This document shows, piece by piece, positions 37,931 to 51,880 of a DNA stretch of 64,000 bases (position 1 is the stretch's first letter; every line of letters begins with the position of its first letter). The notes under the pieces were generated by a model that searched no databases, had not been told where the DNA came from, and saw nothing but the letters and a program-made list of their open reading frames with translations. The stretch is from Flavobacteriales bacterium. Lineage in GTDB: Bacteria > Bacteroidota > Bacteroidia > UBA10329. Both the position numbers and the translations under genes were made by a program. Location of the stretch: positions 43,551 through 107,550 of the forward strand of contig JAIOYP010000002.1 of NCBI GenBank assembly GCA_021741155.1, read 5' to 3'.

Positions 37931-38137
37931 ATGAAAGTTCTTCTCGACATAAAAGATGCGAACGCATTGCATTTGATGGAGGTATTGAAAAGTCTTCCTT
38001 ATGTGAAGACGCAACAACTGACGGACGAAAAAGCCGAATTGTTGAGCGACATTCGCGAAGCAGTGGAAAACCTCAAACTGGTTAGAAGCGGCAAGATGAA
38101 AGCGAGACCTGCCAAGGATTTGCTGAATGAGTTATGA
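37931..38137 (+). CDS. type II antitoxin (partner of the RelE/ParE-like toxin)
   Basis: 68-aa ORF that overlaps the toxin gene by 11 nt, which is the typical toxin-antitoxin arrangement. Confidence 0.55.
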   Translation: MKVLLDIKDANALHLMEVLKSLPYVKTQQLTDEKAELLSDIREAVENLKLVRSGKMKARPAKDLLNEL

Positions 38138-38456
38138 GGTTCTAACCATCCCTCCGTTTGACAAGCAGTTAAAACGGCTGGTTAAGAAATATCCATCTCT
38201 TAGAACAGAATTTTCAACCTTTCTAGATGGTCTTGAAGTACATCCAGAATTGGGAACTTCGCTTGGCAACAATTGCCGCAAGATTCGATTATCCATCAAG
38301 TCAAAAGGTAAGGGAAAATCAGGTGGTGCTAGAATCATTACGAATATCGTCATAAGCGAAAAGGTCGTTTACCTGCTCTCCATCTATGACAAATCTGAAA
38401 AAGCTAATCTGACAGATTCTGAATTAAAGGAATTGCTCCAATTCACGATTGGCTAA
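38127..38456 (+). CDS. RelE/ParE-family type II toxin
   Basis: 109 aa. The pattern CRKIRLSIKSKGKGKSGGARIITNIV ... VVYLLSIYDKSEKANL is characteristic of RelE/ParE toxins. Confidence 0.7.
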   Translation: MSYEVLTIPPFDKQLKRLVKKYPSLRTEFSTFLDGLEVHPELGTSLGNNCRKIRLSIKSKGKGKSGGARIITNIVISEKVVYLLSIYDKSEKANLTDSELKELLQFTIG

Positions 38457-39737: not shown

Positions 39738-39875
39738 CAAAAAGTCGGGCAAAGCTAGGTTTAGTCGATAGTTCACAGTCGATAATCCACAGAAAAAAAC
39801 CATCAATGTATATGACGCAACATCCATTATCGTCTATGGACTATGGTCTATCGACTTTCTGGCTATTTTACAACC

Positions 39876-40340
39876 ATGGATTTTGGCCCGAAAGAAGCGC
39901 TCGAAAAACTCAGGAAATACTGTGCCTATCAAGAGCGGTGCCACTCGGATGTGAATCAGAAACTGTGGGATTTGGAGATTCCATCAGAGTGGAAGGATGA
40001 CATTATTCTTTCATTGATGAAAGAAAACTTCTTGAACGAAGAACGATTCGCCAGAACGTATGCTCGCGGCAAATTCAACATCAAAAAATGGGGAAAAGTG
40101 AAAATCACCGATGGACTCAAAAAACATGAGGTAAGCAAGAAATGCATTCAACTTGCCTTGACCGAAATTGATGAGGATGATTACCTCAGGGTTTTGCGTC
40201 AAACAATTGACGAAAAGCGTTCATCCCTAAAAGAGAAAAATCAATGGAAGCGCAAAGCGGCCATCTATCGGTTTGCAGCGCAACGCGGATTTGAAGGAAA
40301 TTTGATTAACGAATTGCTGAACGAAGAAAAGAGACGATAG
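39876..40340 (+). CDS. recX: regulatory protein RecX
   Basis: It is colinear with RecX (ALEKLRKYCAYQERCHSDVNQKL ... three-helix repeats). The start is taken at MDFGPKEA. Confidence 0.7.
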   Translation: MDFGPKEALEKLRKYCAYQERCHSDVNQKLWDLEIPSEWKDDIILSLMKENFLNEERFARTYARGKFNIKKWGKVKITDGLKKHEVSKKCIQLALTEIDEDDYLRVLRQTIDEKRSSLKEKNQWKRKAAIYRFAAQRGFEGNLINELLNEEKRR

Positions 40341-40445
40341 ATCACGTCAACAGACCACAAAAATGAATCGGTACTGTTGACTATCGACCATGGACTGTGG
40401 ACTAAGCAGCCGATTGTACATTTGCGGCCTCAATCAAACATCCAA

Positions 40446-41549
40446 ATGATCACAAGCGATCAACTAAATAAGCTTAAAAAACGCCTTTCCGACCTTCACG
40501 GCTACCTCGATATTGACCGAAAATTGCGCGAAATTGAAGAGGAAATCCAAACCACTTTATCTCCTGGTTTTTGGGACGACCCGAAAAAGGCGGAGGAGTT
40601 GATGAAGAAAACCAACGCCAAAAAAGATTGGACCAAGGCGTATGCCAAGGCCGAAACCGCGCTAGAAGACCTTGTGGTCCTGTACGAATTCTGCAAAGAG
40701 GGCGAAGCATCTGAAGAAGAGGTGAACGCTCAGGATGAATTATGCACCGACCTGTTGGAAGATTTGGAGTTCAGAAATATGTTGGGCGATGAAGGCGATG
40801 AATTGCACGCAGTACTTGAAATAAATTCAGGCGCTGGTGGCACAGAAAGTTGCGATTGGGCTGGTATGCTGATGCGGATGTACATCATGTGGGCTGAGAA
40901 GAATGGTTTCAAGGTAACGGAGAATGATATTCAGCAGGACGACATTGCTGGAATCCGCTCATGCTCACTTCAAATTGAAGGTGAATACGCATACGGAAAC
41001 CTGAAAGGCGAGAACGGAGTGCATCGTTTGGTGCGTATTTCTCCGTTTGATAGTAATGCCAGACGGCACACATCATTTGCTTCCGTTTTCGTTTACCCAG
41101 TTGTAGATGATACCATTACCATCGAAATCAATCCGGCCGATATTAGCTGGGATACGTTCCGATCGGGCGGTGCTGGTGGACAGAACGTAAACAAGGTTGA
41201 AACGGGAGTTCGAGTTACTCACCATCCAAGCGGAATCATCATCCGTAACACAGAAAGCCGATCACAATTAGGTAACCGCGAAGCAGCTCTTAAGTTGTTG
41301 AAATCTCAGCTTTATGATATTGAACTCCGAAAACGATTGGAAAAGCGAGCCGAAGTTGAAGGTGGTAAAATGAAAGTTGAATTCGGAGCACAAATTCGTA
41401 ACTACGTTTTTCATCCATACAAATTGGTGAAGGACCTTCGTTCAGGAATTGAAACTTCAAACGTTCAAGGTGTGATGGACGGTGAGTTGAACAAGTTCAT
41501 CAAAGGATATTTGCTGCAATTTGGAAACGAGCAAGACGAATCACTTTAA
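40446..41549 (+). CDS. prfB: peptide chain release factor 2; in-frame, with no programmed +1 frameshift
   Basis: It has the GGQ motif (SGGAGGQNVNKVETGVRVTHHPSGI) and the SPF tripeptide (RISPFDSNARR). The N-terminal LHGYLDIDRK region is continuous in one frame, with no in-frame UGA. Confidence 0.85.
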   Translation: MITSDQLNKLKKRLSDLHGYLDIDRKLREIEEEIQTTLSPGFWDDPKKAEELMKKTNAKKDWTKAYAKAETALEDLVVLYEFCKEGEASEEEVNAQDELCTDLLEDLEFRNMLGDEGDELHAVLEINSGAGGTESCDWAGMLMRMYIMWAEKNGFKVTENDIQQDDIAGIRSCSLQIEGEYAYGNLKGENGVHRLVRISPFDSNARRHTSFASVFVYPVVDDTITIEINPADISWDTFRSGGAGGQNVNKVETGVRVTHHPSGIIIRNTESRSQLGNREAALKLLKSQLYDIELRKRLEKRAEVEGGKMKVEFGAQIRNYVFHPYKLVKDLRSGIETSNVQGVMDGELNKFIKGYLLQFGNEQDESL

Positions 41550-41645: not shown

Positions 41646-41984
41646 ATGAAAATCTACCATAACCCACGCTGCTCCAAATCAAGAGAAACGCTGCAAATTA
41701 TTCTTGATGCTGGAGTGGAACCAGAAATCATAGATTACTTGATTGATGTGCCGACCGAAGCTGAATTGAAGGACTTAATCAGTATGCTTGGCATCAAACC
41801 TTACGATCTTCTTCGTAGAGGCGAGGCCGATTTCAAAGACAACTTTAAAGGAAAAGACCTTTCGGATGATGAATGGATTACAGCAATGGTCAAGTTTCCA
41901 AAATTGATTGAGCGACCAATTGTTGTGAAACAAAAAAAGGCCGTCTTGGGACGGCCTCCTGAAAACGTTAAAACGTTACTGTAG
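41646..41984 (+). CDS. ArsC/Spx/YffB-family (arsenate-reductase-like) protein
   Basis: 112 aa. It has an N-terminal MKIYHNPRCSKSR with the catalytic-Cys context. Confidence 0.7.
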   Translation: MKIYHNPRCSKSRETLQIILDAGVEPEIIDYLIDVPTEAELKDLISMLGIKPYDLLRRGEADFKDNFKGKDLSDDEWITAMVKFPKLIERPIVVKQKKAVLGRPPENVKTLL

Positions 41985-42149
41985 TTAGTCTCTTGGCGTT
42001 ATCATAGCAGCCAACTTCTCTCCCATTTTTGGGCTGAAACGCTCCATGAAAAGTAATGTTGCCATCAATGGAACCCACATGGCAAGGAAGGTCAACATCC
42101 AAAAACCCAAAAGCATATAAGCGAAAATTACAACGATACCTGCGGTCAT
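41985..42149 (-). CDS. small membrane protein (hypothetical)
   Basis: A 54-aa hydrophobic ORF (MTAGIVVIFAYMLLGFWMLTFLAMWVPLMATLLF...) downstream of the DnaB-C ATPase gene. The longer track ORF would overlap the neighbouring gene. Confidence 0.3.
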   Translation of the reverse strand: MTAGIVVIFAYMLLGFWMLTFLAMWVPLMATLLFMERFSPKMGEKLAAMITPRD

Positions 42150-42219
42150 CTTTCTAGAATTTGAGGCGAAAGTAATGCATGTGGATGATATGCGCAAAAG
42201 GAAACGGTCAAATTCCACT

Positions 42220-43008
42220 CTAATCATGTGGATCCTGAAAGAGAAGCGTATTCTCGTCAAAGACAAGTGTCATCCAAGGACTCTTAACGGGATAGACCGA
42301 CTTATCGATGTAAACCGTTGTATCCCCTTTTAATACTTTCTGACCAAAATTGTCTTTCTTTTGGTTGCGGTATTCCCATCTATACAGCGTAATAATACGG
42401 TCGGCAACTTGCTCCGTAATTGCATAGTGGTTGTAACGCCCACTTTTTTTTGACCTTTTCCGGTAGTCGGTAGAAGCTTCAAGAATCACTGGTATCTCCA
42501 TCAGTTCTGCTAATATCTTAAGGTGTTTAAGAATAGGTAAATACCGTCTTTTCTTCTTAAAAAGCTGCGAGGATTTTGGTCCGACAAAAAGCATGGCGTT
42601 GATTACAATGCAGTCGACATTCTTTTCTCTTTTCATGATAGAAACAAGCTCACACAGATCAATAAGCGTTGGCCAATACTTGTAAACGACCGGATGGCTG
42701 ACATTCTCAGTTCGCAAAATTCCTGACCGACCGTTCTTTTCCATTTCAAACGAACATTCTTCAATTTGTCGGGATGCCAACGCAACGCGTTCCTTGAATT
42801 TGAATAACGATTCTTCTAGTGAAATGTAGCCTATACGCTGTTTCTGAAGTTTGCTTAACATCATACTCAGCACGAAAGATGTCTTACCCATGGCAGGTTC
42901 GCCAGCAAGAATGACCAGCTCGCCTGGCCGAAAACCACCAATGGCATTGTCCAACATTTTGATACCCGAGAAGAAACATTGATCTGACATTTGTCGTGTT
43001 TTCGGCAA
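42220..43008 (-). CDS. stand-alone DnaB-helicase C-terminal (RecA-like ATPase) domain protein
   Basis: 262 aa. It has Walker A GEPAMGKTSF and is colinear with the DnaB C-terminal domain only (LDNAIGGFRPGELVILAG ... IPVILEASTDYRKRS ... TVYIDKS). The DnaB N-terminal and linker domains are missing. Confidence 0.7.
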   Translation of the reverse strand: MPKTRQMSDQCFFSGIKMLDNAIGGFRPGELVILAGEPAMGKTSFVLSMMLSKLQKQRIGYISLEESLFKFKERVALASRQIEECSFEMEKNGRSGILRTENVSHPVVYKYWPTLIDLCELVSIMKREKNVDCIVINAMLFVGPKSSQLFKKKRRYLPILKHLKILAELMEIPVILEASTDYRKRSKKSGRYNHYAITEQVADRIITLYRWEYRNQKKDNFGQKVLKGDTTVYIDKSVYPVKSPWMTLVFDENTLLFQDPHD

Positions 43009-43040
43009 ATGTTCAGGATGACAGCGACAACTGCTGTCGG

Positions 43041-43943
43041 CTATGCGTAGCGTTCCAATATCCCCTTCAACATCGCTTTCATTCGGTCAATGGCTGAGGC
43101 AGGACTGAGAATACGAACCCTCGATTCCATCATCAATATCTGTTGAAAAAACTCGTAGTTGGGAACTACATGAAGCTCAAATATGACACCGTTTTCGCTC
43201 TCGCCCACTTCGCGCTGCGAATGATGCAATTTCACCGACCGCAAGTAACCAGCGTGGGTCGTTTCTGACCAAAGTTGGATTGTTTCGGGAGCATCCTCAT
43301 TTCCGTAAAGCCCAATTACGTGACCATACATGGCGTCATGATCGTTCTGTTCTGTGAACTGGAAAATTTCATCGATGACTTCCATTTTAAGGATGCGATC
43401 CAACCCAAAACTCTTTGTCTTGCCGCTTTCATCTTCGCGTGCCAACAAGTACCAACGATGAAGGTATTGCTTCAGAAAAAGTGGACAGACCTTTCTTTCC
43501 GTTGGTTCTCCTCCAAATTTGCAATGCGAAACCTTCAATTTTGTGCTGTTCTTTATCGCTTCCAGAATTACAGGAACATGCCCAAGTCCTTCAGTCATCT
43601 GCGTTTCATCCAGATAGATTGATCTGCGTTGACCGCGTTTTTTAGTGGCCTCGTTGCGGAGCATTTCGGCAAGCCCTGCGTGTTCCAAGTAGCGGCTTAT
43701 CAGCGTTTTCTCCTCTGGTTCTTCCACAATCTCGTACCATCTATTCGGATGCGAACCTTTCCGTTCTATCACATAATCGAGTTCGTTTTCGATAGTTTTG
43801 ATGTCGCGCTGAACGGTGCGTTCATCCACGCCCTCACCCAAACCGTGAAGAAAATTCACAATATCTTCGGTGGTCGGGCGGCTGTTCTTCTTGATAAAAT
43901 CTAAGATGTAACCGTGTCTGTTGTATATTCTTGCGTAAGCCAT
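43041..43943 (-). CDS. WYL-domain transcriptional regulator (HTH-WYL-WCX architecture)
   Basis: It has an N-terminal HTH (YARIYNRHGYILDFIKK ... ERTVQRDIKTIENEL), a central WYL-like region (HCKFGGEPTERKVCPLFLKQYLHRWYLLA) and a C-terminal extension. It lies immediately upstream of the DnaB-C ATPase. Confidence 0.65.
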   Translation of the reverse strand: MAYARIYNRHGYILDFIKKNSRPTTEDIVNFLHGLGEGVDERTVQRDIKTIENELDYVIERKGSHPNRWYEIVEEPEEKTLISRYLEHAGLAEMLRNEATKKRGQRRSIYLDETQMTEGLGHVPVILEAIKNSTKLKVSHCKFGGEPTERKVCPLFLKQYLHRWYLLAREDESGKTKSFGLDRILKMEVIDEIFQFTEQNDHDAMYGHVIGLYGNEDAPETIQLWSETTHAGYLRSVKLHHSQREVGESENGVIFELHVVPNYEFFQQILMMESRVRILSPASAIDRMKAMLKGILERYA

Positions 43944-44022
43944 GCGGCTAAGGTAAGCGGGGATGGCGACATTGGTTGTCGGGATGTGTTTTAACATTTG
44001 CTCAACTCATTTATTCGAACAC

Positions 44023-44811
44023 ATGGAAAACTCCAATGAAACTCCGCGTTATAAAACCGTAACCCATTTTTTGTGCGACCTGATCCGCAATCCAGATTTT
44101 GCTTCGTTCCCACGTAGTTTCGCCTATCCAAGTGGGCTTCCCAAAAAAAGTATTCTTTTTCTGGGCCTTCAACCGCCCATGTCGGAGGACAAAGAAAAAC
44201 GCTATCGCTTCGAAATGTATAAGCAGGGAACGAAAGGAGATAAAAATCAATACATCAAACAGTTTGCGGAAATAGCGGAATACTGCAATACTCCGTGGGC
44301 GCATCTGAATCTGCTCTTCTTCAGGAAAACGAAAAACAATGGCATTGATGAAATTTTAAAGAAGGAAGCAGGTGTTCAATTTATATGGGAACAATTGAAA
44401 GTTACCGATCAGCTGATTCGGCAAATAGAACCTGAAATTATTGTGAGCCTGAATAAGACTGATGCAAGCACATTTATGGGATTCAACAAAACCGATAATG
44501 GTAATGCTTGGCTCGATTACGAATTCGTGTTCGATAATGAAATTGACACCTATCGTTGGGAAGGAACACCCGTATTCTTCACCAAATTGTTCAAAGGCCA
44601 ACGAACATTGGACAACGGTTCATTCGAAAAGCTGAAATGGCAGATCAGGAACGCACTGATCCTTGACCTTGAAAAGAAGAAAAAGGAAGTGGTTGAACTC
44701 AAAAACAAGGTGGTCAAATCCTCAAAATATGAACTGGCTGCCGAAATACGGAATCAGGAACGGGAGTTGGAGGATAGGTTGGAGAAACTCAGGTTTAGCA
44801 ATACGCAATAG
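44023..44811 (+). CDS. hypothetical protein with a C-terminal UVR (UvrB/UvrC-type) motif
   Basis: The C-terminus KYELAAEIRNQERELEDRLEKLR resembles the UVR domain. The N-terminal 200 aa are unassigned. It is divergently transcribed from the WYL regulator. Confidence 0.45.
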   Translation: MENSNETPRYKTVTHFLCDLIRNPDFASFPRSFAYPSGLPKKSILFLGLQPPMSEDKEKRYRFEMYKQGTKGDKNQYIKQFAEIAEYCNTPWAHLNLLFFRKTKNNGIDEILKKEAGVQFIWEQLKVTDQLIRQIEPEIIVSLNKTDASTFMGFNKTDNGNAWLDYEFVFDNEIDTYRWEGTPVFFTKLFKGQRTLDNGSFEKLKWQIRNALILDLEKKKKEVVELKNKVVKSSKYELAAEIRNQERELEDRLEKLRFSNTQ

Positions 44812-44813
44812 TT

Positions 44814-46037
44814 TCAACTACCTGTTGCGTACAGTTTTTTTACGATTTCTTCCACCTTTTGCCCAATAGTTTCAGCCGAGGTTTCATAGTCACTTATAGT
44901 TTCGTATAGTACAAACGATTCCTCTCTTTTGCCAGACAGTTTATTTTTATCTCCTACCGACAGAATATTTTCGCTTTTCTCTGATAGGCCATTTGTATTC
45001 CAGAATTCTATAGTCCATCCAATAGGCGAAAGTCTTATTTTCAAATGCAAATCGTTGGTTGCATCTAATGGCTTCAATGGAATGTAAAGGACTGAGTTCA
45101 ACTTACTCAGCTGATCCTCTTTATCCCAAATTTCGGTAGCACTCATCCTTTGAAATTCAGAAAGGTTCAATTTACGCTGTAATTCTCTTAGCTTTCCCCC
45201 AACATCTTTTAGAAACACATTGAAAGCCTGTTGTATCCGTATGAGATTTTCCTGACCATATTCTTTCGATTTCCCTAAGCCTGTAACCAAATCAATTAAT
45301 TCCTTCTTTTGAATATCGTCCATACCTTGTCCAGTTAGTTTTTTGATTAGATAAATGTATTGCCCTATTACGTCTCTTACGGTTGGCACATCAATAACCA
45401 CACTTTGGCATTTAATTAACCATTCGAGTATATCATTCGAGTATGAAATGAGGAAATAATGCTTGTCCTTCTCTCTCGATATTTCTGGCTTTTCTGAGTG
45501 AGTACTGAATCTTGATGCATCGCTCCCATATAACGTCAAATAAAGAATAAGACCACCTTTTTCGCCATTCACATAATAATTGTAATATCGGATGAGTTGC
45601 TTTTTCTGATCTTGAGCGTAAATCTTATTCTCGATACAGATTGAATTCCTTGGATGATTTATTACAATATCTGCCCTTCCGCCTTTTGTCCAATCATCGC
45701 TGATTTTACCCAAATCCACTTCTTTCCTAACCAAAGCTGACTCCATATCAACTTCAGGAATATTCATTTTTTCATCTTTTGATGCTGTCTTTTTTTCTTC
45801 CAGCATCTTTATGAAAAGATTCAGAAATAGTGAGCCCTGTCCATGCGAACCTTTTGGATTGAGCAGTTCAACTAAAAAAGCAGAGTGCGTACTCGTCTCT
45901 GTACTTTCGGCTCCAAGAATGGAAAAAACATTAAATTTTCTTCCAGTTATCCGAGCTATCTCCTCGTGCTTCTTGTTCAGTGCCGAAACCTGTGACAGCA
46001 AAAACTTTGCACGGTTTGTCAGTTCATTCATCAACAA
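44814..46037 (-). CDS. PD-(D/E)xK nuclease superfamily protein
   Basis: 407 aa. The core motif is GGRADIVINH ... ICIENKIYAQDQ (D ... E-x-K). Confidence 0.55.
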   Translation of the reverse strand: MLMNELTNRAKFLLSQVSALNKKHEEIARITGRKFNVFSILGAESTETSTHSAFLVELLNPKGSHGQGSLFLNLFIKMLEEKKTASKDEKMNIPEVDMESALVRKEVDLGKISDDWTKGGRADIVINHPRNSICIENKIYAQDQKKQLIRYYNYYVNGEKGGLILYLTLYGSDASRFSTHSEKPEISREKDKHYFLISYSNDILEWLIKCQSVVIDVPTVRDVIGQYIYLIKKLTGQGMDDIQKKELIDLVTGLGKSKEYGQENLIRIQQAFNVFLKDVGGKLRELQRKLNLSEFQRMSATEIWDKEDQLSKLNSVLYIPLKPLDATNDLHLKIRLSPIGWTIEFWNTNGLSEKSENILSVGDKNKLSGKREESFVLYETISDYETSAETIGQKVEEIVKKLYATGS

Positions 46038-46117
46038 AAAATATTAGGATAACGTATTGATCTCAAAATATCCAGACGAGTATTTCAAACACATCAACGA
46101 ACTCAAAACATACAATT

Positions 46118-46348
46118 TCACAGTGCAGGTTGGTGCTTTTTTGTAGGACTTTTTGAACAAGAATTTACACACAGACTGGAAAGGCTTGAATACTTTCCAC
46201 CACAGAACTTACAAGTATATTGAGCCTTTTCGCTTCCCTCATACAAAGCATGTTTCTTGCCTTCTGGATTTTTGGAGCAGGAGTTTACAGTCAGACTGGA
46301 TACGCTGGAATACTTACCTCCGCACCATTTGCAATAAAAATTAGACAT
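46118..46348 (-). CDS. 76-aa protein made of two tandem C-x2-C-GGKYSS-x-SSL-x-VNSCSK repeats (possible zinc ribbon)
   Basis: The protein reads MSNFYCKWCGGKYSSVSSLTVNSCSKNP ... YTCKFCGGKYSSLSSLCVNSCSKSP. The DNA shows a ~110-bp internal tandem duplication. Confidence 0.4.
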   Translation of the reverse strand: MSNFYCKWCGGKYSSVSSLTVNSCSKNPEGKKHALYEGSEKAQYTCKFCGGKYSSLSSLCVNSCSKSPTKKHQPAL

Positions 46349-46592
46349 CTTAATTTCGGTTTTTCGTTCAGTGCTTACTCTTCTCGGTTTTCAGCTTCCC
46401 CTGTTTCTTGTAAATGTACATTTAATACTCTCAGACAAACATCCATACTGTTACCGACAAATGCTGTCGGAACATGAGAGACCCTTCAATTTCTTCGGCT
46501 ATGCTTAGAACAGACAGAGAAACAAACGAGACAATCATACCTCGCCAAATCACTCCAACAAAACCACTTTTGGCGAAGTATAATCGTTTTGC

Positions 46593-47993
46593 TTACTCAA
46601 ATAGGCAATCCATTTTCAGATCGTTTTGAACCAATTCCAGGCTGTAGGGATTCTCTTTGGTACCAAAAGTTGTTACCATGACCAAGTGTGTGCCTTTTCG
46701 GGTTCCAGAAGAATTTTTGAATTCCGAAATCTTGTTCCGAAGATTCTGAGCGTACGTTTTATCAATGGTAAATGGCGAATTGGCAAACTTCATTTCACAT
46801 AGATTAATAATGTTGTCTGCCCGATCAATTACCAGGTCTATCTGTGCATTTTCGTTGAACCAACTGCTGCTTTCGGAGCGGATTGCCTGTATTTGAAGTC
46901 CTTTCTTCAGTTGATGAACATGTTTAAGACACAGTCCCTCAAAACTGAATCCCGACCACGAAACATACGACTGACTGGTTTGCAGATTCAGCCAAGTACC
47001 AGAACCGTTGTATTTTCCGTTCTCCATGAATTTCAGGTAAAACAGTGAATATTCATCCGACAAGCGATACAGGGTTTGCTTCGCCTTATTCTGAAAATAA
47101 GGATACTCAGTAACAAATCCAGACTCGATTAATTCCATCAATTTCAGCGAAAGATCGCCACCACTGGGAAGTCCACTTTTCTCAATGATCCCGTCTCTTG
47201 TCAACCCTTTCCGTGTATTTGCCAACGCCCTGATTATCGCTTTATGCTTATCAGAATCATCAAATAGTGAGGCGAACAGTAGATTGAACTCATCACTCAA
47301 CACTCCGTCCTTCTCGAAACACATTCGGTCCAAATTCTGCGCTACACTCTTACCCCGTTGCACTTTCTCCAAATAGTGAGGAACGCCACCAACGGCCATG
47401 TATAGCTGCAAAATATCATAGCGTGTAAGATCAATATTCCTGCTTTTCAGAAACAGTTCTGTTTCTTGTAGGTTGAATGGCAACAGACGTATTTTTTGCG
47501 AAATCCGATTGTGAAGACCGCCTTTGTTCCTAATAATCTTCTGAACCATGTACGATGCAGCAGAACCACATATTACAACAATCAGATCTGCACGTTTCTC
47601 AGAATAGCTATTCCAAAAATTCGCAAATGCCATGAGAAATTTAGACCTCTTTGTGGCCATCCAAGGAAACTCATCAATGAAGATTACCTTTTTTCCTTCA
47701 TTGGAAAGACTATCAATATACTGTTCCAATAAGGTGAATGCATCCAGCCAATTAGTTGGTTTTTTATTATTGGTCGATGTTCGTTTGTCGAGTTCCTTGG
47801 TAAAATTGGCCAACTGATCAACCATTCCGCCTTGAAAAAGACCCGTTACCTCAAAGCAAATCCTATTCTCAAAAAACTGCCGAACGAGAAAGGTCTTTCC
47901 TACCCTTCTCCTTCCATAAATGGCAATCAATTCGGCTTTATCGCTTGACAAAGTGGCCTCAAGCAGACCAATTTCGTGTGTTCTTCCAACCAT
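46593..47993 (-). CDS. AAA-type ATP-binding protein (Arch_ATPase + DUF234-like architecture)
   Basis: Walker A GRRRVGKTF and Walker B VIFIDEF are present. The C-terminal ~100 aa are typical of the DUF234 family, which is common in Bacteroidota. Confidence 0.7.
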   Translation of the reverse strand: MVGRTHEIGLLEATLSSDKAELIAIYGRRRVGKTFLVRQFFENRICFEVTGLFQGGMVDQLANFTKELDKRTSTNNKKPTNWLDAFTLLEQYIDSLSNEGKKVIFIDEFPWMATKRSKFLMAFANFWNSYSEKRADLIVVICGSAASYMVQKIIRNKGGLHNRISQKIRLLPFNLQETELFLKSRNIDLTRYDILQLYMAVGGVPHYLEKVQRGKSVAQNLDRMCFEKDGVLSDEFNLLFASLFDDSDKHKAIIRALANTRKGLTRDGIIEKSGLPSGGDLSLKLMELIESGFVTEYPYFQNKAKQTLYRLSDEYSLFYLKFMENGKYNGSGTWLNLQTSQSYVSWSGFSFEGLCLKHVHQLKKGLQIQAIRSESSSWFNENAQIDLVIDRADNIINLCEMKFANSPFTIDKTYAQNLRNKISEFKNSSGTRKGTHLVMVTTFGTKENPYSLELVQNDLKMDCLFE

Positions 47994-48099
47994 AACATCT
48001 ATTTATAATTCGCCAAATGTATGAAAAGAGGTGAGATTTGGCGAGATATAAGCAAAAAGGGGAACTGACCGTTTTTGATCAATAATCTTGAAGCAAAGA

Positions 48100-48175
48100 A
48101 ACCGAGACCCTTCCTTCGTCAGGGAAACAAATGAGGTAAACTGATGTAGGCCACTTACTTTGCTGCCTAGGAAGC
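48100..48175. repeat. deleted derivative of the MITE (first stem plus right TIR)
   Basis: The sequence is gagacccttccttcgtcaggg ... gccacttactttgctgcctaggaag. Confidence 0.45.
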
Positions 48176-48182
48176 GTCTCAG

Positions 48183-50869: not shown

Positions 50870-51880
50870 TCATACATCCCTTTTTCGCTGCCGATTGGCC
50901 ATGTATTCTACAATGGCATCTTCGGTAGTGAGCCAATTGCGGCCGTCCTTGTAGGCGTCTATTTTACCTTGCCGTGCCAGCAAACTCACGTATTCCTGAC
51001 CATAAGGAAGCTGACTTTCTTCTACAATATTTGAAATCGGTTTGTACTCATTCCCGTCAGGGTGCATGCTCAAGTAAATATCCAAGGAACGCTCTACAGC
51101 CTGCATCATTAAAAGCAAAAGCTTGGCATGAGAACCATTGCTGGCCCTATCCTTATTTAGCGCATCATAGTATTTCTTCCTGTCATTTTTTAAGATGATA
51201 GCTGGAGGATAACCCTTCCGCATAAGCAAAAGGTTCATTGCCAAACGCACCGTACGCCCGTTTCCATCAAAAAAGGGATGGATCCAAACAAACCGATGAT
51301 GAAAAATCGTGGCTAGAACAATGGGCGAAAGCCCCTGCTCATTCTCATTCACGAAATGGATTAACTCATCAATCATATCAGAAACCTTCTGAGCATTAGG
51401 TGGAGAAAAATTTGCACCTGTAATACGAACACCAGCATTTCGAAACCTTCCAGCATAAAACTTCTCCAATTTCAGCATTACCAATTCGTGAAGATCTAAT
51501 ACTTCCGTTGTACGCAACGGAGCATCTGAACCTACCAGCCCTTCTAAGTAGGAAATAGCATCGTGGTGGTTTGCCACTTCAAAATGCTCGCGCATCGATT
51601 TGCCCTTCACCGTCATACCATCTTGCAGTACCACGCGGGTTTCGTTAAGCGTAAGCGTATTGCCCTCAATACTGGTAGAATTATAAGTCCATTCAAGATT
51701 AAGCCCTTCGCGAAGCCGCTCCAAAGCAACTTGTGCCATGGGTCTTTTAGTATCTAACAGGAGTTTTTTCTGTTCAATACGATCAATCCCAACTTGCAGG
51801 TCTTTAATATCGGATAGGTCTATTTTCCACATAACCCCACAAATATATGAATTATCGTTTAGTTTAATTATTGCCTTCAT
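50870..51880 (-). CDS. Fic/DOC-family protein
   Basis: It carries the Fic motif HPFFDGNGRTVRLAMN. Confidence 0.8.
   Translation of the reverse strand: MKAIIKLNDNSYICGVMWKIDLSDIKDLQVGIDRIEQKKLLLDTKRPMAQVALERLREGLNLEWTYNSTSIEGNTLTLNETRVVLQDGMTVKGKSMREHFEVANHHDAISYLEGLVGSDAPLRTTEVLDLHELVMLKLEKFYAGRFRNAGVRITGANFSPPNAQKVSDMIDELIHFVNENEQGLSPIVLATIFHHRFVWIHPFFDGNGRTVRLAMNLLLMRKGYPPAIILKNDRKKYYDALNKDRASNGSHAKLLLLMMQAVERSLDIYLSMHPDGNEYKPISNIVEESQLPYGQEYVSLLARQGKIDAYKDGRNWLTTEDAIVEYMANRQRKRDV

Follow-up and report, generated by a model that had tools for sequence, protein, structure and literature searches.

Genes of the locus

The window analysed here is a stretch of 64,000 nt from an uncultured Flavobacteriales bacterium (metagenome-assembled genome), and all coordinates are those of the whole stretch. 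At 42220-46469 it carries genes for a winged helix-turn-helix (wHTH)-WYL-WCX transcription factor (hereafter WYL), a stand-alone DnaB C-terminal protein (DnaB-C-like), a protein with the fold of the uracil-DNA glycosylase (UDG) superfamily and a UVR tail (UDG-like/UVR), a PD-(D/E)xK nuclease (PDDEXK_4) and a small cysteine-rich protein (Cys76). Perfect copies of a 15-bp palindrome, CGACA-N5-TGTCG, stand at three promoters of this cluster (O1 to O3, Table 1) and recur with the same gene families in related loci. From this pattern most cluster genes are predicted to be co-regulated, not merely adjacent.

An initial annotation had listed seven open reading frames (ORFs) in this region, among them a small hydrophobic ORF and an ATPase_2/DUF234 ATPase. 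All seven were present in the ORF map and their families were confirmed by Pfam and PADLOC; gene list and coordinates stand with small corrections. The small hydrophobic ORF is listed at 41985-42266 (-) in the ORF map, and the gene itself encodes 54 aa (41985-42149). The DnaB-C-like gene most likely starts at ATG 42990 rather than TTG 43008, because the TTG falls inside the gene's own -7 box (43006-43013), and because the database protein (P0001) has 256 aa and homologues align from residue 7. The WYL and DnaB-C-like genes are adjacent, as annotated; with this start, the gap between them is not 33 nt, and instead measures about 50 nt and holds an operator and a promoter. The UVR-motif gene is indeed divergent from the WYL gene.

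The UDG-like/UVR and PDDEXK_4 genes are convergent and 2 nt apart in the window; in one related locus (L003) they overlap. The part with PDDEXK_4, Cys76 and the DUF234 ATPase is AT-richer, with a GC content of 0.375-0.39 vs 0.42-0.46 in the flanks, and low GC spans 44.5-47 kb. No plasmid match, Rfam family or tRNA was found, and there is no sign that the segment is a discrete mobile element. On both sides it is flanked by sequence syntenic with relatives.

Operator palindrome

The palindrome was found by aligning the regions upstream of WYL genes. Three perfect copies were counted in the 64-kb window vs 0.04 expected, and 0 of 100 shuffles reached three. All three are intergenic and lie within the cluster, at three promoters inside 3.5 kb; no further site was present in the window at 1 mismatch. 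O1 lies in the bidirectional promoter shared by the WYL and UDG-like/UVR genes, O2 between the WYL stop codon and the DnaB-C-like gene, and O3 at the head of a transcription unit of Cys76 and PDDEXK_4, with the DUF234 ATPase stop codon and a hairpin resembling a terminator (46525-46546) on its upstream side.

For comparison, 124 related loci (L001-L124, 1.6 Mb) were fetched and their gene content was mapped by tblastn. All perfect copies fell in loci whose WYL homologue is at least 59% identical; about 100 loci with more distant WYL proteins, which served as negative controls, contained 0 perfect operators. Every close WYL homologue has an equivalent of O1, located 22-23 nt ahead of its ATG. 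O2 has equivalents in L002 and L003/L048 (there with a toxin-antitoxin pair inserted upstream of the site) and, with 1 mismatch, in L007. The PDDEXK_4 homologues in L002, L003 and L048 carry an operator 96-176 nt upstream. Across six locus types the palindrome heads WYL, UDG-like/UVR, PDDEXK_4 and DnaB-C-like genes as well as genes for a Metallophos protein and two proteins designated P190 and P214.

A perfect operator was also found at an unlinked, apparently frameshifted UDG-like/UVR copy between peptidase M1 and deoC (L130:8040-8054, L131:7462-7476). The other side of this operator is the promoter sequence of the Metallophos gene in L001. The bidirectional operator cassette seems to be mobile as a whole and under control in trans.

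Members of a sister WYL clade (42-44% identity) carry a related palindrome, CGTCA-N5-TGACG, with one site per locus, located only before their own WYL gene. Its spacing to the -7 boxes is the same 11 nt on both sides. Sister-clade segments are L008:7962-9400, L012:2891-4329 and L013:9962-11404. In this clade a 161-aa HD-domain protein follows the WYL gene in place of the DnaB-C-like protein. In L008 and L012 the sister WYL gene faces a divergent operon with a 605-aa ORF; in L008 this ORF is a KAP NTPase, and L008 also has a PDDEXK_4 gene.

Promoter layout

The -7 element of Bacteroidota promoters has the consensus TAnnTTTG. In the window, operators and -7 boxes are separated by 10-11 nt. Among 42 unique oriented operator flanks from all loci, 31 had at least 5/6 matches to TAnnTTTG at offset 10-12, and only 6 such matches were spread over 33 other offsets. 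Of the remaining 11 orientations, six run into the 3' end of a gene lying upstream or have no gene ahead of them. Five are directed at DnaB-C-like, PDDEXK_4 or UDG-like genes, and their boxes at the same offset are weaker, scoring below 5 of 6 (CAATTTCG, GATGTTTA, GAAACTTG). No conserved -33 element was seen at operator promoters; the operator occupies the -33 position. The layout reads TGTCG(G/C)-N10-(T/A/G)AnnTTTG. A sigma-70 promoter scan is uninformative for Bacteroidota. The WYL mRNA is probably leaderless, because the ATG follows only 4 nt past the -7 box.

Two short strings in the spacer between the WYL and UDG-like/UVR genes had been pointed out in the initial annotation as a weak clue to a WYL-dependent promoter. 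They turned out to be informative: tgtcggga is half of the perfect palindrome at 43967-43981, and taacatttg is the -7 box 11 nt away.

Table 1. Positions of genes, operators and -7 boxes in the window, and of P190 genes in related loci.
Feature	Position	Strand	Remarks
recX	39843-40340		
ArsC	41646-41984	+	
54-aa membrane protein	41985-42149	-	neighbour, probably outside the predicted regulon
DnaB-C-like: stand-alone DnaB C-terminal (RecA-fold) protein, 256 aa	42220-42990	-	PF03796, E 1.4e-20
WYL: wHTH-WYL-WCX transcription factor, 300 aa	43041-43943	-	Pfam WYL and WCX
UDG-like/UVR: UDG-superfamily-fold protein with C-terminal coiled-coil/UVR tail, 262 aa	44023-44811	+	UVR motif at residues 217-251, E 9.5e-5
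PDDEXK_4: PD-(D/E)xK nuclease, 407 aa	44814-46037	-	Pfam E 1.9e-35; PADLOC PDC-S26, E 3.3e-86
Cys76: 76-aa protein with two Cys-rich repeats	46118-46348	-	first gene after O3
ATPase_2/DUF234 ATPase, 466 aa	46593-47993	-	PADLOC PDC-S27, E 1.5e-192; neighbour outside the predicted regulon
Operator O1, CGACATTGGTTGTCG	43967..43981		bidirectional promoter of WYL and UDG-like/UVR genes; perfect palindrome
Operator O2, CGACAACTGCTGTCG	43025..43039		between WYL stop codon and DnaB-C-like gene
Operator O3, CGACAAATGCTGTCG	46455..46469		106 nt upstream of Cys76 ATG
-7 box, AACATTTG	43993..44000	+	UDG-like/UVR promoter, 11 nt from O1
-7 box, TACCTTAG	43948..43955	-	WYL promoter, 11 nt from O1; 4 nt before ATG
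-7 box, AACATTTG	43006..43013	-	DnaB-C-like promoter, 11 nt from O2; contains the TTG of the ORF finder
-7 box, GATGTTTG	46436..46443	-	Cys76/PDDEXK_4 promoter, 11 nt from O3
P190 in L003	L003:4416-4988	-	
P190 in L007	L007:213-788	-	
P190 in L001	L001:7288-7854	-	
P190 in L011	L011:9364-9969	-	

Conservation across related loci

The genes around WYL form a recurrent set that was found in six arrangements, including independent metagenomic contigs. The window holds Cys76 and PDDEXK_4, UDG-like/UVR, WYL, DnaB-C-like, the membrane gene and arsC. L003-L006 and L048 have P190, PDDEXK_4, the UVR protein, WYL, a YoeB/ParE pair, a split DnaB-C-like gene, the membrane gene and arsC; L049 covers the UVR-WYL part of this arrangement. 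L002 has a duplicated pair of P190 and PDDEXK_4, a frameshifted UVR protein, WYL, DnaB-C-like, the membrane gene and arsC. L007 is limited to P190, WYL and DnaB-C-like, followed by the membrane gene, arsC, prfB, recX and an MFS gene, with the same right flank as the window. L001 has P214, the UVR protein, Metallophos, a different PDDEXK_4, P190, WYL and an integrase element. L010, L011, L045, L046 and L047 have P214, the UVR protein, P190 and WYL, and share the left flank (fumC and a type IX secretion system esterase) with the window. Given these shared flanks, the module fills a fixed slot between fumC-esterase and arsC-prfB-recX with variable content. The juxtaposition of genes in the cluster is not random: gene order recurs in the independent contigs, and the number of operators far exceeds expectation.

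P190 (about 190 aa) is the most constant operator-bearing partner of WYL in the related loci, where it is usually divergent from WYL and leaderless; it is absent from the window. Neither P190 nor P214 had a Pfam or PADLOC match. Two genes of the window, those for the DUF234 ATPase and Cys76, have no counterpart in the related loci.

Conservation of the pair of WYL and DnaB-C-like genes, which the initial annotation had singled out, was assessed starting from WYL homologues. Both genes are present in 4 of 6 locus types; next to the closest WYL homologues (85-88% identity) no DnaB-C-like gene is found. A YoeB/ParE-type pair (L003:8190-8698; equivalents in L004-L006 and L048) lies between the WYL gene and the DnaB-C-like operator, and in the same loci the DnaB-C-like gene is broken in two, one part encoding 162 aa and the other lying about 285 nt further downstream. 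In L001 (L001:9028-16819; WYL 88% identical) an integrase directly follows WYL at the DnaB-C-like position; HTH_17, DnaB N-domain and DUF3987 genes come after it, then AAA ATPase and GmrSD genes.

WYL regulator

The WYL protein belongs to the YafY/PafBC/DriD superfamily of wHTH-WYL-WCX factors. It matched PF13280 (WYL, 8.2e-12) and PF25583 (the dimerisation domain WCX, 6.7e-7), and the WYL models of PADLOC matched too. Homologues in the word-indexed database were 42-93% identical. A scan of genome contigs recovered only four close-clade loci, and the clade is therefore narrow. In an AlphaFold2 model (predicted local distance difference test, pLDDT, of 76), helices 25-34 and 41-54 and a beta wing at 58-74 form an N-terminal wHTH. 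R42, T43 and R46 of the recognition helix (R-T-x-x-R-D) are invariant in 14 WYL homologues.

A profile of the WYL clade matched PDB entries of DriD (4e-9), PafB (1e-7), BrxR (0.03) and CapW (0.05), and Foldseek searches with the model gave full-length alignments to DriD (6e-13), PafBC (2.5e-11), BrxR (2e-8) and CapW (1e-7). The residues with which DriD contacts single-stranded DNA (ssDNA), R178, Y192, K202, R204 and W206, correspond to R, Y, K, K and F in the window protein; the substitutions are conservative, and these positions vary little or not at all within the clade. The residues are found in the repressor CapW as well; they support ssDNA sensing by the predicted regulator, not a direction of regulation.

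DriD of Caulobacter crescentus, an ssDNA-activated homodimer that switches on a damage response independent of SOS, is the best match by both profile and fold, and has the same order of wHTH, WYL and WCX. Its consensus is ATACGAC(N7)GTCGTAT, and the crystallised site ATACGACAGTTACTGTCGTAT contains CGACA-N5-TGTCG (PMC10853764). CGxC(N7)GxCG was reported for 68/69 DriD homologues, averaging about 17 nt upstream of the start codon (PMC10853764). Both the operator core of the window (CGAC-N7-GTCG) and that of the sister clade (CGTC-N7-GACG) fit this pattern. The regulated promoters all lack a -35 element, whose position is covered by the DriD site at an unchanging distance from -10, and driD lies in a bidirectional promoter from which DriD activates the divergent operon (PMC13004042). 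The site of the window is likewise placed in a bidirectional promoter shared with the regulator gene, some 20 nt ahead of its start codon, overlaps -35/-33 and keeps a constant distance to -10/-7. A nuclease belongs to both sets of genes (bapE in Caulobacter). Unlike in Caulobacter, the host is a member of the Bacteroidota with -7/-33 promoters and leaderless mRNAs, and the predicted regulon is clustered beside its regulator, whereas that of DriD is dispersed. No recA, recJ, dnaG or division inhibitor was seen in the predicted regulon of the window.

PafBC of mycobacteria acts at promoters with a -26 element, the pattern tGTCgg(N10)tA(N3)T and no -35 element, the basis of 'sigma adaptation' (PMC8635444). 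This grammar, with no -35/-33, is reproduced in the window. Two arginines four residues apart are found in the recognition helices of PafB (R46/R50), of SiwR (R38/R42) and of the window protein (R42/R46); for PafB and the window protein they face a GTC triplet. Unlike PafBC, which is a heterodimer or fusion, uses one half-site and binds only with RNA polymerase, the window has a full palindrome, as for a homodimer. The regulon of PafBC also differs in spanning most mycobacterial repair genes. A small regulon located beside the regulator gene, as predicted here, is also controlled by SiwR of Mycobacterium smegmatis, a homodimeric WYL activator that responds to genotoxic stress; the palindrome bound by SiwR lies between -10 and -35 of those adjacent genes (PMC10693628). 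SiwR differs in being actinobacterial, in its palindrome sequence and in its cargo of DinB/YfiT-like metalloenzymes.

BrxR and CapW, repressors of BREX, CBASS and other systems, share domain architecture, the predicted ssDNA sensing, a bidirectional promoter and defence-type neighbours with the locus. They are repressors, unlike the activator predicted here, and the similarity to them is weaker; the CapW site is unrelated in sequence to CGACA-N5-TGTCG (PMC11662680).

Predicted effector proteins

The 262-aa protein has the alpha/beta fold of the UDG superfamily. An exhaustive profile search (E up to 1e-3) placed it in a family of 1332 clusters at 50% identity, most of whose members have 210-235 aa and no UVR tail. 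No Pfam match to the core was found in 37 diverse members. The family consensus is G-I-N-P-S, with G48 and P51 invariant and N50 at least 90% conserved; it is similar to the GINPG motif of MUG and TDG. A His-containing motif B is not present. Tail-less relatives (about 40% identity, L125-L129) lie between radical-SAM and NUDIX hydrolase genes in several genomes and have no operator; this context suggests a housekeeping origin of the family. The defence glycosylases Brig1 and Brig2 can be likened to the window protein by fold and setting, as stand-alone UDG-fold proteins among accessory genes, and are a precedent for excision of modified phage bases. The window protein differs from them in its UVR coiled-coil tail, in its predicted control by WYL and in the housekeeping-like neighbourhood of its tail-less relatives.

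In the PDDEXK_4 protein the catalytic signature E...D...ExK is intact, and E47, D123, E136 and K138 are invariant. PDC-S26 is a candidate assignment only; no paper validating a defence role for it was found. Cys76 is an internal duplication of a C-x2-C-x14-C...H unit. Because its two repeats differ by 11 synonymous vs 6 non-synonymous codons, the peptide is under purifying selection and the gene is real. No Cys76 homologue was found in the 124 fetched loci, and no library family scored above threshold.

The best PDB matches of the DnaB-C-like protein are C-terminal domains of replicative DnaB helicases. It begins at the RecA-like domain and has no N-terminal DnaB domain (PF00772). The window protein keeps an intact Walker A (GEPAMGKTS), has Asn in place of Asp in Walker B (IVINAM) and lacks RESG. 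Among orthologues, Walker B Asp is replaced by Ser in L007 and Walker A Lys by Cys in L002 and L048. Lack of PF00772, the degenerate Walker B and the lack of RESG set the protein apart from replicative DnaB helicases. The protein diverges faster than WYL (31-46% vs 59-69% identity), and a word-indexed search with it returned only itself and distant full-length DnaB proteins. Because its motifs are degenerate, its divergence is fast and the gene is split in one lineage, it is unlikely to be a motor. A partial PADLOC match to 'mad8' (E 1.9e-4) was rejected as generic P-loop similarity.

Neighbouring genes

Two genes that the initial annotation had grouped with the cluster were not retained. The DUF234 ATPase has no operator upstream, is absent from all homologous loci and is parted from O3 by the hairpin at 46525-46546; it was rejected as a regulon member and regarded as a separate single-gene PADLOC candidate (PDC-S27). 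For the 54-aa membrane gene a separate conserved TACTTTCG box was seen, and no operator. Its product (MTAGIVVIF...MITPRD) shows 68-87% identity in L002, L003 and L007, compared with 31-46% for the DnaB-C-like protein of these loci. Membership of the gene was rejected on the grounds of this operator-less promoter of its own and a conservation pattern unlike that of the regulon genes. The proximity of recX to the cluster, also noted initially, is correct as a position; a functional link was rejected, as recX is part of the conserved chromosomal flank arsC-prfB-recX and has a 2-mismatch site only. This operator-like sequence, CAACATCCATTATCG at 39818-39832, lies 10 nt before the recX ATG; 14 such sites exist in the window and it is probably due to chance.

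Several other features were observed in the surroundings. In the region 47994-48182, described initially as a remnant of a miniature inverted-repeat transposable element, only a 16-nt inverted repeat was found (48003-48018/48036-48051, 88% complementary), upstream of the DUF234 ATPase. A two-gene pair at 37931-38456 looks by sequence like an antitoxin and a RelE/ParE-like toxin, and another accessory gene flanking the region encodes a Fic/Doc-family protein (50870-51880). A release-factor-2-like ORF at 40377-41549 (+) is listed from a TTG with an odd N-terminal extension, which could stem from the programmed +1 frameshift typical of prfB.

Interpretation and alternatives

The interpretation we consider probable is that 42220-46469 constitutes a local regulon under a homodimeric, ssDNA-activated wHTH-WYL-WCX factor of the same type as DriD, PafBC and SiwR. 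The factor would recognise CGACA-N5-TGTCG 10-11 bp upstream of the -7 box, at the usual place of the -33 element. Most likely, ssDNA arising from DNA damage, stalled replication, phage replication or DNA uptake would bind the WYL domain, and the factor would then recruit or adapt RNA polymerase at promoters without a -33 element. Both activation rather than repression and ssDNA as ligand are what we infer from homology and promoter layout. Three units would be switched on: first, the WYL gene itself and the divergent MUG/TDG-like UDG-superfamily protein with its UVR coiled-coil tail; second, the catalytically degenerate stand-alone DnaB C-domain; third, the small two-repeat Cys protein, as a possible zinc-type partner, and the PD-(D/E)xK nuclease with its intact active site. 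The cargo would amount to an inducible kit for recognising and cutting DNA, by base excision followed by strand cleavage. The DnaB-C protein would more likely bind or modulate ssDNA or the replicative helicase than work as a motor.

The initial annotation had left the choice between a WYL-controlled damage-response module and an uncharacterised defence system. Control by WYL is strongly favoured by one conserved operator per transcription unit and by the same operator with the same families in relatives. As for purpose, the evidence points to an ssDNA-inducible regulon with defence-like cargo; the substrates of the effectors and the assignment to repair or anti-phage defence are speculative. 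Toward defence point PDC-S26, the variable content with toxin-antitoxin and integrase insertions, the lower GC, the fast divergence of the DnaB-C-like protein and the precedent of defence glycosylases. Toward repair point the fixed chromosomal position, the housekeeping-like context of the tail-less relatives and the precedents of DriD, PafBC and SiwR. The PADLOC analysis proposed initially yielded two single-gene candidates, PDC-S26 and PDC-S27, and no recognised multi-gene defence system (BREX, CBASS or other) in the cluster.

Several points weigh against an ssDNA-activated regulon of this type. The evidence for it is comparative throughout. Several promoters share extended sequence (e.g. 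GGATGTTTG), and common descent of duplicated promoter cassettes could partly explain the fixed spacing. A palindrome over -33 could also suit a repressor, the -33 element being weak in Bacteroidota promoters anyway. The N-terminal wHTH is unalignable to that of DriD by sequence (identity to DriD 17-20%), and the box common to both may be a family-level feature or convergent. The linker of DriD is a three-helix bundle contacting RNA polymerase; that of the WYL model has two confident helices (81-99 and 120-131), with pLDDT <50 at 99-117. Glycosylase activity of the UDG-like protein is uncertain because its subclade reads G-L-Q-P-P in place of G-I-N-P-S. The DnaB-C-like partner is missing or split in several relatives. 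Finally, the operator is absent from canonical repair genes of the window, recX included.

The strongest alternative, which we regard as possible and clearly less probable, is that the WYL protein is a repressor of the BrxR/CapW type that sits over -33, keeps defence or toxic genes off and is released by ssDNA. Established precedents exist in which an ssDNA-sensing WYL repressor occupies a bidirectional promoter adjoining defence genes (PMC11662680). With the operator lying across the -33 region, the sigma factor could be blocked, and the character of the island would fit as well: its cargo includes PADLOC defence candidates, its content is variable, with toxin-antitoxin and integrase insertions, and the part with PDDEXK_4, Cys76 and the DUF234 ATPase is AT-richer than the flanks. 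However, similarity to BrxR and CapW is clearly weaker than that to DriD and PafBC in both the profile and the Foldseek comparisons, and the operator core corresponds to the DriD box and not to the CapW site. The strict 10-11 nt to the -7 box at unrelated genes, with no -33 element, is moreover the signature of the activators DriD, PafBC and SiwR.

It is unlikely that the genes encode one obligate multi-protein defence machine, a new anti-phage system in which a sensor ATPase, a glycosylase and a nuclease form a complex. The same four families do recur together, the UDG-like and PDDEXK_4 genes are tightly convergent or overlapping, and Brig1 and Brig2 are proven glycosylase defence effectors. 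Yet each gene has its own operator and promoter, and content varies: L007 has only P190, WYL and DnaB-C, L010/L011 are without DnaB-C and PDDEXK_4, L001 adds Metallophos and P214, and the window is without P190. Single members are also broken while the rest of the locus is intact (DnaB-C-like split in L003 and L048, UDG-like frameshifted in L002), and PADLOC recognised no known multi-gene system. Chance juxtaposition of unrelated accessory genes without common control, to which the variable slot and the DUF234 ATPase, which does look like an unrelated insertion, might lend some credit, is effectively refuted by the excess of perfect operators, by the finding that across 1.6 Mb the motif is confined to close-clade WYL loci or stands before a regulon-gene homologue, and by its staying with the same gene families when these are rearranged or unlinked.

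Biological implications

ssDNA-sensing WYL regulators are established in Actinobacteria, Alphaproteobacteria and Acinetobacter. Bacteroidota use different promoters and sigma factors, and their damage response is poorly understood; no description of an ssDNA-sensing WYL regulator in this phylum, or of the present cargo, was found in the literature. The locus provides a precise regulatory code, composed of a 15-bp operator, 10-11 bp spacing, three promoters and a defined cargo, and thereby a direct route to asking whether activation without a -35/-33 element works with Bacteroidota RNA polymerase.

A bolder proposal, which we hold to be rather doubtful, is that a LexA-independent alarm based on ssDNA and WYL factors extends across phyla, Bacteroidota sigma factor and promoters included, and here drives an island for 'DNA hygiene' or against phages. 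The UDG-family protein would act as a base-excising effector, the PD-(D/E)xK nuclease would cleave the resulting sites, and the dead DnaB C-domain would serve as a decoy or poison of replicative-helicase assembly that halts host or phage replication. If this were true, a previously unrecognised UDG-superfamily family of >1300 clusters without a Pfam model would be involved.

PDC-S26 and a large uncharacterised UDG-like family are hereby tied to a predicted ssDNA alarm signal, and the motif can be used for scanning whole Flavobacteriales genomes to define the regulon.

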